Shown here one piece after another: positions 15,128-21,177 of a stretch of 35,565 bases of DNA; within the stretch, counting starts at the first letter, position 1; every line of letters begins with the position of its first letter. The translations under genes and the position numbers were made by a program. Origin of the DNA: Candidatus Hermodarchaeota archaeon (GTDB lineage: Archaea; Asgardarchaeota; Lokiarchaeia; Sigyniarchaeales; SOKP01); the NCBI GenBank assembly GCA_048885525.1, contig JBHLLP010000035.1, positions 1 to 35,565 on the forward strand, in the 5' to 3' direction. The notes under the pieces were generated by a model, which searched no databases, was not told the origin of the DNA, and worked only from the letters and a program-made list of their open reading frames with translations.

Positions 15128-18100
15128 TTAAGTAACTGAGATAAAATCTTCCTCTGAAATATATATAATAACGTTATCAACTATTAAGAACCATTTGAAC
15201 CTAATTATGATATCACTCGTTGTACAGTTAATCAATCCATTCAAAATAATACCCTCCCCTGAATAAAGAGTAGTGTCAATCAATGTAAAGTTAATTCCAG
15301 AGTATACACCGTGAGTGAAAGTTGTATTTTTCAATGGGTAATATACGGGTGGTACCAGAACTGAAAATAGTCCCCCTCCTTCCCGATATAGCGATAGATT
15401 TACCTCAACGTCATATCCCGGAGCTAAAATAGTTTCATTCATATTCTCGAGTTGTATTCTAAAGTTAGCAAGATCATTTGGCAAAGTCATAGAGTTTTCC
15501 AATTCAAAATTAAATGATATTGCAAATCTCTTTATATTTACTACTATCTTATTTGATGTTGTATTTCCATATTCATTAGATGCTTGGATGTAGAATTCAT
15601 AAATCCCGGTATTTAAGTCTGAAATTGTATAAGAGGTTTGTGTATTTGGTAAATTACTAATAATTAAGGAATTGTTTTTATAGATTGAATAAGTATCAGC
15701 AAATTGCGATTCTGTCCAATTTAATAGAAATGATCCATCGAAATCTGGATTAGCCGCATCTGATACTAATAAAAATGCCCTTGGTTTGAAGTTTTCTAAA
15801 TTATTATATGCTTCAAAAGCTTCAGCACCATAGCCTACTCTTCTAGTGAAAGCCTCTACGAATCCTGCTAACTTTAACTGTTGTAGACCACCAACGGTGC
15901 TATAAGTTGGTATATAATAATAAACTGAACCTCCAAGAGGATATAATAAAGTATTTCCATTTCTCGCACCCGAAATTAGGATAATTTCTTGAGTTGCTTC
16001 TGTTTCATATGTATCTCTCGCAGTTTTAGGACCAATTAGATTTTCAGTTGAATTTCTTGTGTGATAAAACAGCGCTTCCCCGAAATTTTCTCCATGTCTT
16101 ATTATATACATACCTGCTAATGTTTTTGCCTCTGTTCCTTGATATTCCACTAAATCTAGCCCTACATATTCAATTCCATTTCCTAGATTTGTCTCAATAT
16201 AAAAAAGATCTCCATTTTCTGGTCTTTCATGAAAGTCGTCTCCTCTCTTCCAAGTTTTTAGATCTTGTACATGATATTTGTAATTTGCTGCCAATTGCAT
16301 TTCAAATAGATCTTCGGGATATCTCAATTGTTCTTTTAACCATGCTGGAGAATTTTGCCAATTGTAGGCGTCCATGTAGTATTTCCAAGTAGAATAAGTG
16401 GGATCAGCAACTGATTCAATTAAACTAGGATTTTTATAGAATTCCATTTCACCATTAATTACATCAACTAAACTAATTCCCAAAAATCTTAATATTGGAG
16501 AGCGTGAATATGAGCCAATATTTATAGATGCATAAATTGAAACTGCGTAATACATCTTTTCATTAATTCTATCAAATACCAAGTAAGGATCGTTATCTAC
16601 TTTTAGTTGAGGTAAAAGTATGTTAGCGACACGGTTTTTAACGTTTCTATTAAATAAATATGGTTTTTCTCCTCCTTGGAAAACATAACCCCAAAGTCCC
16701 AAACTAGCAGTATACCAAAAAGCTTCCAAACCTTCAAGTACTCCGTCGGGGTTACCTTCATATACATAGATATTATTAGGGATTCCACCTCTCCAATCAG
16801 TTCCTAGTAATATGCTTTTTGTATAGGCACCTAAACCCCTACTGGTACCATGTTGCTCAAGAAATCTCTGACTTTCAGATTCACCGAAAAATATTGGATA
16901 ATTTTCATCTATATTAAAAGTCGAACTTACATTAACTAATTCTCCTGTGTTTGTATCTAATGCCAAAAATCCTTCAATATGATCATATAATTCTGTAGAG
17001 ACTCGTACGGGATCTCCAGCAAATTGAGATAATCTGATTGTTTTTGGTGCAACCCAATATTCTGTTCCATTTAAATATATAATATCAGAATCTGCTAACC
17101 CTTCATAAGTAGTGCCGATTTTCGCAGCTAAGGATTGTACAGCAAAATCTTGGTCAAATTGTCTAATTCTTTCGATCATCTGTGTATCATTTTCAGGTGA
17201 AGAAGATAAAGTAAAATTTTCAATTGTTCTTTCCTCAAACATATCTAATCCAGCACATTCTCTTGTCCAAGAGATTTCTCTTTGAACTTTTTTATTCCAT
17301 TCATATGTTGTATACACAGATGTATTACTTAATGTAAATATAGGTCCAATACTCATTATTAGAGGGAAGGCTATTAGAACAATTAGTACTCCCCCAGTAA
17401 TCCCCATTTTCATTCTATTACGCTTTAAAATCATTTTAAATCTTGGATACTTCTTCAATTTATAGCGACCAATAATATATATTGCTACTCCTAAACCAGT
17501 AAGAGCAACAAATGCTAATATCAACGACCACATCTGTAATAATTCAATCCCATTTAAAGCAAAAGTAGGTAAAGAAAGAAAAATCAATCCACAGATTAAA
17601 CCGCCAATTACCAGCGAATTTGCGATGATGTTATAATCATTTCTTTTCAAGTAATAATTGCTTACAATGTTTAAAATCATTCTAAATATACATATAGCAA
17701 AAATGTAAGATATAATCGGTAAATATAATCTGGCGTAAACAAAAAGGAATTCTATGTTCAAATTATTTTGATTCATTAATACGTTAAAGGCATCAATAAA
17801 GATAGTGAAAGGTGAAAATCCAACTTCTCCTTTTTCTATTAAATATAGACACCAAGAGAATTGACCATCCAAATCGATTAGAAAGCCAATGCAATAGAAT
17901 AAAGCAAATCCAGCTGTCCACCAAAAGATTAAAGCTTTTAATATTGAAGGTTTGCCAAATCTTAAACGAGTACCAATCATAGTCAATAAATTTCGATTAG
18001 GTGGTACACTCATTATTACACATCCTATTATCGCCCCAATTAAGGCTGTTTTATTGAAAAAGAAATTAGTAGACCAGAAATTAAGAAAATACACATCATA

Positions 18101-18427
18101 ATAACTTAATCCTCCTGCTTTATTCTGATAGAGTTGAGCATTAAGATTAATTGGAGCGAACCAAGCAGGCCACCACCATAAAATCGATAGAGCAACTATA
18201 ACAATAATTATTATGGGTAAGAAGATCTTTAGATATTTTTTAGCTTTTGGATAATATTGAAAAATGCCAAGTTTCAATGGCTTTATTGCTGGAGGTTCAT
18301 CATCAAGAGATTCTCCGCGTTCTAATCTTTCTGTTTTCTGTTGAATTTCAAATCTACGTTGGGCTTCTCTACATGCCTCACAATAGTAATTCCACTTCTT
18401 ATGTCTTTCACACGATTTTTTTGCCAT
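15128..18427 (-). CDS. UPF0182 family membrane protein with N-terminal Zn-finger and C-terminal FN3-like domain
   Basis: N-terminal TM bundle; I.WTR..AGLD, YPIFFGE, RNVK.RV..ILLP.LKVD.DPY, QLRYPEDLF..Q....KYHV, GNTLLYP...YY.P.Y; FN3-like LNWTES..ADTY.IY...GIYEFYIQASNEYG. Confidence 0.85.
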   Translation of the reverse strand: MAKKSCERHKKWNYYCEACREAQRRFEIQQKTERLERGESLDDEPPAIKPLKLGIFQYYPKAKKYLKIFLPIIIIVIVALSILWWWPAWFAPINLNAQLYQNKAGGLSYYDVYFLNFWSTNFFFNKTALIGAIIGCVIMSVPPNRNLLTMIGTRLRFGKPSILKALIFWWTAGFALFYCIGFLIDLDGQFSWCLYLIEKGEVGFSPFTIFIDAFNVLMNQNNLNIEFLFVYARLYLPIISYIFAICIFRMILNIVSNYYLKRNDYNIIANSLVIGGLICGLIFLSLPTFALNGIELLQMWSLILAFVALTGLGVAIYIIGRYKLKKYPRFKMILKRNRMKMGITGGVLIVLIAFPLIMSIGPIFTLSNTSVYTTYEWNKKVQREISWTRECAGLDMFEERTIENFTLSSSPENDTQMIERIRQFDQDFAVQSLAAKIGTTYEGLADSDIIYLNGTEYWVAPKTIRLSQFAGDPVRVSTELYDHIEGFLALDTNTGELVNVSSTFNIDENYPIFFGESESQRFLEQHGTSRGLGAYTKSILLGTDWRGGIPNNIYVYEGNPDGVLEGLEAFWYTASLGLWGYVFQGGEKPYLFNRNVKNRVANILLPQLKVDNDPYLVFDRINEKMYYAVSIYASINIGSYSRSPILRFLGISLVDVINGEMEFYKNPSLIESVADPTYSTWKYYMDAYNWQNSPAWLKEQLRYPEDLFEMQLAANYKYHVQDLKTWKRGDDFHERPENGDLFYIETNLGNGIEYVGLDLVEYQGTEAKTLAGMYIIRHGENFGEALFYHTRNSTENLIGPKTARDTYETEATQEIILISGARNGNTLLYPLGGSVYYYIPTYSTVGGLQQLKLAGFVEAFTRRVGYGAEAFEAYNNLENFKPRAFLLVSDAANPDFDGSFLLNWTESQFADTYSIYKNNSLIISNLPNTQTSYTISDLNTGIYEFYIQASNEYGNTTSNKIVVNIKRFAISFNFELENSMTLPNDLANFRIQLENMNETILAPGYDVEVNLSLYREGGGLFSVLVPPVYYPLKNTTFTHGVYSGINFTLIDTTLYSGEGIILNGLINCTTSDIIIRFKWFLIVDNVIIYISEEDFISVT

Positions 18428-19131: not shown

Positions 19132-19509
19132 ATGATTAAAATGATATTCCAAACCTTTGAAGAAATAATGTGGTTTTTGGTTTTTTACCTTATAGTTCTG
19201 TTGATAATGGCAATTTTTCTGAAATTGGCTTTGGGTTTCTTTAGTAAAGCAAAACATACTAATTTTGGTAATGTTTTTTTGACTGCTTTTTTAATAACAA
19301 TAACATTTGCTTTAGTTTTTTGGTTTTTAGGAGGTTGGGTCGCATGGTTAGTGGTATTAATTATAACCTGGATAATTATTAGTATCAGCCATAATGTCGG
19401 GTTCTTAAGTGCAATAGTTATAACTGTATTGGCTTTTCTAATATATGTTCTCGTTGTCATTTTAATTGGTGCATTATTACATGTATCTATTGATATAATT
19501 CCTTTCTAA
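19132..19509 (+). CDS. Small 4-TM membrane protein
   Basis: 125-aa hydrophobic ORF followed by a T-tract terminator. Confidence 0.75.
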   Translation: MIKMIFQTFEEIMWFLVFYLIVLLIMAIFLKLALGFFSKAKHTNFGNVFLTAFLITITFALVFWFLGGWVAWLVVLIITWIIISISHNVGFLSAIVITVLAFLIYVLVVILIGALLHVSIDIIPF

Positions 19510-19636
19510 AGCATTTTTATCTTTTTTTTTGTTTTAACTATGTAAGAAAAAAAATCACCAATAAATACGTCCGACATAATAAATCCATGGAAGTATATTG
19601 TCGACGAAATTTTTTAATTACTCATTAATAATTGCA

Positions 19637-19644
19637 TTTAAATA
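19637..19644 (+). promoter_or_regulatory. Archaeal TATA box for the intergenic ncRNA
   Basis: TTTAAATA centred ~26 nt upstream of the first paired G (19667). Confidence 0.6.
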
Positions 19645-19666: not shown

Positions 19667-20010
19667 GTTCACTCCTAACGGCGTGAACGTCGAGAAGAGG
19701 TATTGTTACCTCAATGCATTGGAACCGAAAGGTAATCAGTAGTGATATGAAAAGAGGTTGTGTGTAAAAACACGATTTGAACTAAAATTTAAATCGCAAG
19801 ATTTATATTCGGTGTTCAGTCTTGCTAATTCGCAAGAATTGGTGAGGTTATCAATCGGTAACACCATTCAAAAAATAAGTAATTATTGATGAACGGTATT
19901 TCTTTTCATAGTGCAACCTGATTCAATGTTTTGAAAATTTTTTCACTTATGTGAGAAAAAACAATACCGTTGCAATGAAAACCTCTAGGTATTCACTTGC
20001 AACTTCTCGT
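19667..20010 (+). ncRNA. Large structured non-coding RNA of unknown family (~345 nt)
   Basis: Nested long-range helices CGAGAAG 19691-97/CTTCTCG 20003-09, GGTATTGTT 19699-707/AACAATACC 19960-68, AATCAG 19734-39/CTGATT 19918-23 and TATGAAAAGA 19746-55/TCTTTTCATA 19901-10; GAAA, GCAA, GTAA and C(TAAC)G tetraloop hairpins; G-U wobbles favour the + strand; no long ORF; upstream TATA box and downstream pyrimidine tract. Confidence 0.85.
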
Positions 20011-20094
20011 CCCTTCTTTATCCTTCAATAATTTCTCTTTTTAAGATAATTTATTATTTGTAGACTCCTTGAATAAAAAAAAAATTATAGAAGA

Positions 20095-21177
20095 TTAAAT
20101 TTTTATTACTATACTTTTTTTAGCTAAAAGGAGAGCAATTCCAGCCTCAACGGCTATAGGAAGAATCCCAACTAAGAGCATTGTAAACCAAGGATATGCT
20201 AATAGGAAATCCTTCTGGATGAATTGACCGAGAATTAAATCCCAAATAAAAGATAATATGAACAATAGTAAGAGATTTCTTCCCATCTCACTTAAGATCG
20301 GGACCTTAAAATTCATTGTTTCAAAGCTATAAAAGACAGCAATTAAAAAACCTGATGCTGCTATTGCCAGCAAAGCTAGGGAAGTGGTTGCATCATGATG
20401 CTCTGCAGGTTGAATCCAGTCAAAACAATAAAAAGCTAAGATAGATATAGCCGCACCAGGCAAAATTCTCTTCTTAAATCCTACAGTAGGATCATTAGGG
20501 TCCATTTTATACCATTGACAAAAACATGTTCCTGCTATGGCAATTGCTGTATGGTTGAGAGCATTCCAAGGGAACACTATTGTTCCAGTTGAGGGGCTAT
20601 GTTGCTGAAAAACATTGGGAAATGCATATAGAACAGCATGTATTACAAGAATACCTACAGTAACTATAATTCTTTTATCCGCTTCCTTTGGAATCAAATA
20701 TACTGCCAAATATGCAGCAAAAGAGCCAATTGCTAAATTTGCTAATGTTCCATACCATAATACTTCGTTCCATGGGATTTCTCCATTGGCGATTAGTCCA
20801 CCAAATAATCCATCGTCCAAAAAGGCTATACCATATAAAATTGCTACACGGATTATACCATGTTTCCATGCTTCTTTAACACCTTTTTTGTCTCTACGAC
20901 TCGTAAAAGCGAGATACGCACCGAGGCCCAAGACAAACATAAATATTTGTTGGCCAATATCAATAATGGTTATCAGTGCAGGAAATCCCTCAAAGTATTG
21001 GAATCCATGATTTAATAATGGAGATCCTATTGGTTGGTCACCAGATCCAATGGTAGGATCACCAGATAGTTGCCATGTGATTACTGAAATAATCAGAAAT
21101 ATGAGTATCATTCCTCTAAACTGATCTAACCATTCCCATCGTTTTTTAGATAGAGTATCAATACTTTCTTCTGACAT
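20095..21177 (-). CDS. HGSNAT/DUF1624-like transmembrane acyltransferase
   Basis: R..WLDQFRG..., LNH...TIID..Q.IFMF..G, RV.IL, GTL..LAI, GRN.LL.FI. Confidence 0.75.
   Translation of the reverse strand: MSEESIDTLSKKRWEWLDQFRGMILIFLIISVITWQLSGDPTIGSGDQPIGSPLLNHGFQYFEGFPALITIIDIGQQIFMFVLGLGAYLAFTSRRDKKGVKEAWKHGIIRVAILYGIAFLDDGLFGGLIANGEIPWNEVLWYGTLANLAIGSFAAYLAVYLIPKEADKRIIVTVGILVIHAVLYAFPNVFQQHSPSTGTIVFPWNALNHTAIAIAGTCFCQWYKMDPNDPTVGFKKRILPGAAISILAFYCFDWIQPAEHHDATTSLALLAIAASGFLIAVFYSFETMNFKVPILSEMGRNLLLLFILSFIWDLILGQFIQKDFLLAYPWFTMLLVGILPIAVEAGIALLLAKKSIVIKI

Follow-up and report, generated by a model that had tools for sequence, protein, structure and literature searches.

Does the spacer at positions 19667 to 20010 hold an RNA gene in its own right, and if so, to what class does its product belong and how might it act? 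The window is the whole stretch of DNA that we analysed (35,565 nucleotides of contig JBHLLP010000035.1, from Candidatus Hermodarchaeota archaeon). An earlier note, made from its letters alone, had read this segment as an independently transcribed large ncRNA, a scaffold or ribozyme candidate possibly specific to Asgard archaea. Hardly any large structured RNAs are known from archaea besides rRNA, SRP RNA and RNase P RNA, and a further class from the Asgard group is relevant to the extent of structural RNA before the eukaryotic snRNAs, 7SK, vault and Y RNAs.

Locus and fold stability

The predicted RNA gene lies in a gap of 585 bp between the gene of a 125-aa membrane protein (19132-19509, plus strand) and a convergent gene of 360 aa (20095-21177, minus strand), neither of which had a Pfam match. 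No reading frame is conserved across the homologues of the RNA. The segment 19667-20011 folds with a minimum free energy of -117 kcal/mol as compared with a mean of -70 for dinucleotide shuffles (z = -9.41; 0/100 shuffles as stable), and the minus strand of the locus gave a z of -7.9. Among the 103 of 285 ORF-free regions that were scored, namely those with a 345-nt segment of at least 27% GC, this one was the most stable, level with SRP RNA and above RNase P RNA and the tRNA clusters. About 70% of the bases of the RNA are paired, and all 15 helices listed in the earlier note can form, some of them with internal mismatches. The locus had also been described as richer in GC than its flanks; this is the case for the adjoining spacers (35% vs. 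21%), but the downstream coding sequence is equal in this respect (36.5%).

Conserved structure and covariation

Across 28 homologous sequences, 94% of the cells of the conserved fold were paired and 35 of 111 pairs showed two-sided change, a count reached by 0/500 shuffles, while slid controls paired at 35–43%. These compensatory changes back most of the helices. Because closely related sequences inflate covariation counts, we also ran a tree-aware null on 39 sequences with our own script, modelled on R-scape. Four of 104 pairs were then retained at E<0.05 and 17 at E<0.5. Double changes on single branches numbered 48 and were spread over 31 pairs. The pairs 19782/19814 and 19760/19773 in the head were at E<0.05 and 19825/19842 at E 0.1; the P2 pair 19705/19962 also covaries. 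In the 39-sequence alignment 93% of positions were paired on the plus strand vs. 86% on the minus strand, but this alignment was fitted to the model and therefore leans towards structure.

The conserved fold runs from a dispensable 5' hairpin through the trunk (P1-P2-P3) and a small hairpin with a stalk to a six-way junction, which consists of five hairpins and the closing helix, and the two 3' side hairpins of the trunk form three-way junctions (Table 1). The sequence of P1 (GAGAAG/CUUCUC) is almost invariant. Conserved unpaired bases are confined to short A-rich or GNRA loops, and the alignment contains no long single-stranded guide or template. Pseudoknot or kissing-loop covariation was not significant in 38-39 sequences, where power is limited by an identity of about 80%; the top non-nested pairs by mutual information proved to be clade noise under the tree-aware control. 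An alternative hairpin (GAGGUA/UACCUC) and the pairings AGAGGU/ACCUCU were set aside, being without two-sided change or often broken.

The homologues, 28-39 in number, also corrected the first-pass fold. Two of its hairpins, 19773-96 and 19797-824, are not conserved (at single positions, for example, 3/28, 10/28 and 1/28 sequences paired). The multiway junction proposed to cap the trunk is conserved with a different set of hairpins, including H7 and one long hairpin, H8. The helix 19717-21/19924-28 is present, its conserved form being longer (19712-21/19924-33), and within the trunk helix 19746-55/19901-10 the pair 19747/19909 is not conserved.

Table 1 Features of the predicted RNA gene and its promoter, in window coordinates.
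Feature	Position	Strand	Remarks
Two CGAC boxes, each followed by an A-tract	19571-19609	+	CGAC at 19572-75 and 19602-05, 30 bp apart
TAATAA/TTAATAG repeat	19615-19631	+	Here TAATTA and TTAATAA; directly precedes the TATA box; BRE/UAS-like
TATA box TTTAAATA	19637-19644	+	22 nt before the predicted start G19667
5' leader hairpin H0	19667-19688	+	Dispensable: missing from genomes G013 and G028; larger in the short variant
Closing helix P1 and P2, 5' strands	19689-19707	+	Partners 20003-20011 and 19960-68
5' strands of P3 and stalk P5/P5b/P6	19712-19755	+	Partners 19924-33; 19918-23, 19912-14, 19901-08
Side hairpin H4	19724-33	+	GNRA loop in most cases
Head, six-way junction	19756-19897	+	Conserved A-rich and GNRA loops
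Head hairpins H7, H8	19756-77, 19778-19818	+	H8 with internal loop UAAA/UCGGU
Head hairpins H9, H10, H11	19824-43, 19847-62, 19863-97	+	
3' trunk	19901-20011	+	Partner strands of P6, P5, P3, then P2', P1'; common to all size variants
3'-trunk side hairpins H12, H13	19938-59, 19969-20003	+	
Pyrimidine/U-rich tract	20010-20045	+	Probable archaeal terminator; conserved in homologues

Promoter, probable terminator and possible transcripts

Upstream of the predicted start, a region of about 100 bp is conserved at every intact locus examined. It contains the TATA box that had been proposed, and relative to this box the CGAC motifs with their A-tracts lie at -65 and -35, TAATAA at -22 and TTAATAG at -12. 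Both CGAC boxes, about 30 bp apart, were present in 38 of 52 distinct promoters and at least one of them in nearly all; they are probable binding sites for a dedicated activator. The spacing from TATA box to start is about the same as for RNase P RNA. In those genomes that lack the leader hairpin, an unchanged spacing leads to the first base of P1. Within this genome the promoter profile scored >12 at this locus only. No second site of a CGAC-promoter regulon was found in the genome, and no CGAC promoter was seen in front of the SRP or RNase P RNA. In a set of 400 genomes from the phylum, exact matches to the proximal-promoter consensus occurred at loci of this RNA only.

A pyrimidine tract after the 3' end is expected of an archaeal terminator, and the tract noted downstream of the locus is indeed present after 20010. 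Three genomes that lack the RNA (L178, L179, L180) carry a lone CCGAC with A-rich sequence ~270 bp behind their homologue of the 19132-19509 gene, which is possibly the scar of a lost promoter. With regard to expression, 20 contigs from one sequencing run match ~19671-20010, most of them from relatives (<90% identity) and one at 99%; this run is labelled metatranscriptomic and flagged as probably DNA, and its contigs cannot show ends, strand or level. An Illumina adapter stands directly before 19689 in one contig and after 20010 in another. These positions fit a mature RNA without the leader hairpin, a hint that we did not count as evidence.

Distribution, genomic loci and size variants

With our covariance model, the RNA was detected in 57 of the 135 genomes that make up a single Promethearchaeia family, and in 3 of its 13 genera. 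The carriers comprise this genome, 36 of the 53 others in its own genus, 19 of the 42 genomes of a second genus and 1 of the 6 from a third; two further carriers, beyond the 57 of the model, were recognised from pattern and position. Outside the host family, 0/40 sampled genomes had the RNA. Its suggested specificity to Asgard archaea is too broad, given a range of three genera in one Promethearchaeia family. BLAST found one copy at 70–86% identity in about half of the genus, and BLAST, nhmmer and the covariance model agree on a single copy in this genome. Nearly every carrier has one copy, and the RNA was not found in several 96–100% complete genomes of the window's genus. Viral contigs gave no true match (two chance pattern matches only), and four bacterial pattern matches in the genome collection were likewise dismissed as chance, none having a covariance-model match.

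Two records deserve mention with respect to their assignment. A long-type copy in the second genus (L176; G159 C57) resembles sequences of the first genus and lies at a contig end, where transfer or bin contamination is possible. The record L083 (JBHLKM010000014.1) is titled Hodarchaeota, while the genome database places its genome in this Loki genus; it is probably a mislabelled deposit.

The neighbours of the RNA vary in identity and orientation, none is common to all loci, and the genes downstream are mostly convergent and variable. The short, three-unit and second-genus long types lie directly behind a gene for a PolB2-type family B polymerase (polB2), often in the same orientation. In the window's genus, the RNA sits elsewhere among changing neighbours, and the polB2 site is empty in this genome (C18:53340-53360, with a convergent gene next) and in most of its genus. 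A search for diverged copies behind polB2 in non-carriers found the site empty except in G138, which is a new carrier. A filled site spans ~470–640 bp, a cassette of promoter and RNA, vs. ~20 bp when empty. Filled and empty polB2 sites, compared by eye, showed no terminal inverted repeats or target duplication, and no transposase, nuclease or reverse transcriptase was seen among the annotated recurring neighbours. The gene occupies at least three genomic positions across genomes, and carriers and non-carriers interleave on the PolB2 tree (a single-locus tree, used only to show this interleaving). From the comparison of polB2 and other loci, the lack of repeats and the changing neighbours, it appears that the gene moves rarely, its promoter included, and is the leader of no gene. 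Its changes of locus and its absence from several near-complete genomes make it look accessory and non-essential by these genome comparisons. A further feature of the region is a 1099-aa protein (15128-18427, minus strand), which contains a UPF0182-like segment and matches fibronectin III weakly; in several genomes, homologues of its gene are neighbours of the RNA, on one side or the other.

The family is variable in size. The long type, to which the window copy belongs, measures 315–349 nt, and the short type (205–240 nt) carries another head on the same trunk, without H8. A nested type of 634 nt combines short-type hairpin sets with the very head of the window copy, and a 705-nt type has three units in series behind one promoter. 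One genome has both the long and the short type. We detected no homology between the last three hairpins of the long head and the short head (best E about 1.6), so that the notion of a repeated binding module rests partly on architecture. Genome G026 holds a tandem duplicate, and decayed copies were found in G013 and G042. Decayed, internally deleted copies at L067:3033-3230 and L068:5893-6076 lie next to homologues of the 1099-aa gene. The copy in L028 (genome G040) lacks H12 and the 3' strand of P2 with promoter and head kept, and is possibly decaying.

Tests against known RNA families

Neither the window nor six variant loci matched a family in Rfam 15 (E-value mode), and our literature searches on Asgard or archaeal ncRNAs found no description of this RNA. 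Of the absences listed in the earlier note, those of SRP, RNase P and tRNA-like features were borne out. The locus has no SRP helix-8 motif and no match to RF01857; RNase P CR-I is lacking, as are the P4 pseudoknot, CR-V and a match to RF00373; and tRNA-like ends are missing, with no Rfam match and no ARAGORN tRNA call on the contig. A tmRNA was rejected on the same grounds and for want of a conserved ORF as tag frame. There was no match to the covariance models of ROOL, GOLLD, OLE or raiA, and HEARO or omega RNA was dismissed in view of the missing Rfam match and the lack of an adjacent IscB/TnpB. Unlike a riboswitch or cis leader, the RNA does not regularly precede a functionally related gene in its own orientation. 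The UGAUGA and CUGA motifs of the window copy, which could suggest a C/D box sRNA, are not conserved. No Ro60 (TROVE) gene was found in this genome, which is 99% complete. The default ARAGORN scan reported 13 tRNAs only in this genome, and two tRNA-like genes with long or multiple introns, L184 (C17:25895-26610) and C16:58660-59130, were not called by it.

The Rfam SRP model was silent in this genome, and the idea of a diverged SRP RNA was therefore raised. The true SRP RNA is nonetheless intact, split over the overlapping ends of two contigs (C46:1-290 and the end of C52) and missed by the Rfam search. In this archaeal family most SRP RNAs fail to reach the Rfam gathering cut-off. In relatives, SRP RNA and the RNA studied here occupy separate loci. 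A paralogue of RNase P RNA was rejected as well; the genome has its RNase P RNA on contig C49, and we found no profile similarity to SRP or RNase P RNA.

Proposed mechanism and alternative explanations

Several results support the earlier view of an independently transcribed large ncRNA: the covariation, the conservation of promoter and terminator, neighbours that vary and lie in both orientations, the lack of a conserved ORF, the single copy without terminal repeats and the absence of an Rfam match. We are nearly certain that the locus is a real, independent ncRNA gene, as predicted from these comparisons. By its architecture, as reconstructed from sequence, the RNA is a new class, whose function may resemble that of ROOL, GOLLD and OLE. 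There is no long unpaired guide or template, fixed catalytic core or fixed neighbour, so the RNA likely acts through its shape. As to a scaffold or a ribozyme, the former fits better, since heads are exchangeable and multipliable and we see no conserved catalytic core or pseudoknot. Our main reading, to which we give a probability of roughly one half, is a regulated, trans-acting structural RNA that serves as a multivalent scaffold or protein sponge, or assembles with itself into an oligomer.

Mechanistically, a dedicated activator on the phased CGAC boxes would drive transcription from G19667. The rigid trunk P1-P3 with its two side hairpins would then carry the multi-hairpin head, whose GNRA and A-rich loops may pack by A-minor contacts, and the nearly invariant terminal helix could be a common handle for recognition or stability. 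The heads would supply surfaces for binding or self-assembly, so that the RNA may be a multivalent scaffold or sponge for proteins or a homo-oligomer in the manner of ROOL, GOLLD and OLE, and the three-unit and nested genes may represent covalently linked versions of the multimer. We identified no partner protein. Counting against the multimer, tandem triplication could simply raise dosage, with the units cut apart. More tentatively still, and with the odds against it, archaea could here have their first class of large RNA that forms a defined multimer by self-assembly, or that is the scaffold of a dedicated RNP, with an activator of its own; the oligomer would then be written into the gene as internal repeats, in versions with one, three and four heads.

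The RNA might instead be a trans-acting conformational switch or sensor, which we consider rather unlikely. A pairing of 9 bp is possible between residues 19684-92 and the 3' strand of H8 (19810-18), to the exclusion of H0, the base of H8 and outer P1, and a ligand, a protein or removal of the leader would flip the RNA. The pairs 19689-92/19810-13 are kept in most long-type homologues by wobble-compatible changes (U-G 26 vs. U-A 12; G-C 26 vs. G-U 11), the full 9 bp are kept in most genomes of the window's genus, and the conserved UCGGU loop would be explained. These changes are one-sided, however; the lone two-sided one is also explained by an H8 pair, outer P1 has two-sided compensation of its own, H0 is absent in two genomes and H8 from the short variant, and there is no downstream gene available for regulation. 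The 9-bp pairing is a candidate for a folding intermediate or a switch. Catalysis, either by a ribozyme or within an unknown RNP, is unlikely in our view: a nearly invariant terminal helix would suit it, as would a size and multi-junction complexity akin to those of RNase P RNA, but we see no conserved pseudoknot or single-stranded core and no Rfam ribozyme match, the head is exchangeable and multipliable, and the gene appears non-essential.

The several genomic positions, the filled and empty sites behind polB2, the tandem duplicate and the decayed copies would be compatible with a selfish or mobile element or its relic (a MITE, an omega/HEARO-type RNA or a retroposed RNA). This is also unlikely, given one copy in nearly every carrier, no true match in viral contigs, no repeats, target duplication or mobility genes at the loci compared, and a structure and promoter that, judged from the homologues, are under purifying selection; the MITE check suggested earlier likewise returned a single copy without terminal repeats or target duplication. 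For an antisense or guide RNA (sRNA, C/D or H/ACA guide, or template), which we regard as quite improbable, a regulated promoter as in stress sRNAs could be cited, but long conserved single-stranded stretches are missing from the alignment, as are conserved C/D boxes, and no antisense target was convincing, the best genome matches being AT-rich 13-20-mers in paired or variable parts. Finally, we consider it very improbable that the RNA diverged from SRP or RNase P RNA as a paralogue (an MRP-like offshoot) or that it acts in cis on a neighbouring gene. The similar length, the paired ends, the silent SRP model and the frequent position behind polB2 in the same orientation speak for such readings; against them stand the true SRP and RNase P RNAs on other contigs, from which the profile differs, and polB2 without the RNA in most genomes of the genus.

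Comparison with known systems

Archaeal SRP RNA (RF01857) is similar in having ~320 nt, paired ends, a long trunk and its own TATA promoter; it differs in its helix-8 SRP54 motif and Alu domain, which this RNA lacks, and in being universal rather than patchy. Archaeal RNase P RNA (RF00373) and RNase MRP RNA share with it a P1 closing helix, a multi-way junction and a side hairpin that immediately precedes the P1 3' strand; the difference is that this RNA has no P4 pseudoknot and no CR-I/CR-V. The Y RNAs of the Ro60 RNP combine a sequence-invariant terminal stem with an exchangeable upper part, and this RNA is alike in that respect, although it is three times larger and without the Ro-binding bulged-C stem. 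HEARO/omega RNAs and MITEs are comparable in length (~350 nt), structure and occurrence at more than one locus across genomes, unlike this RNA in that it has no Rfam match, no IscB/TnpB neighbour seen, a single copy and no terminal repeats. Patchy presence and apparent dispensability are shared with the L. salivarius lncRNA, which is non-essential and present in 34/45 genomes (PMC5643018). The importance of the RNA described here is capped by its narrow range (three genera) and apparent dispensability.

The nearest parallels may be OLE, ROOL and GOLLD, RNA-only multimers held together by A-minor and kissing-loop contacts (10.1101/2024.12.08.627333). These are known from bacteria and phages, whereas our RNA is archaeal, has a smaller unit (205-350 nt) and shows no sequence or covariance-model similarity to them; it was not found on viral contigs or beside tRNAs, and its head is swapped or multiplied. 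No kissing loops, as in ROOL and GOLLD, were detected in our 38-39 sequences of ~80% identity. If the multimer or RNP reading is true, a large structural ncRNA would exist in the prokaryotic lineage closest to eukaryotes. The versions of 205, 240, 320, 634 and 705 nt on one trunk form a natural set for cryo-EM and for tests of domain multiplication. Like ROOL, GOLLD and OLE (10.1101/2024.12.08.627333), the RNA is large, stand-alone and intricately branched, and its A-rich and GNRA loops suit A-minor packing.
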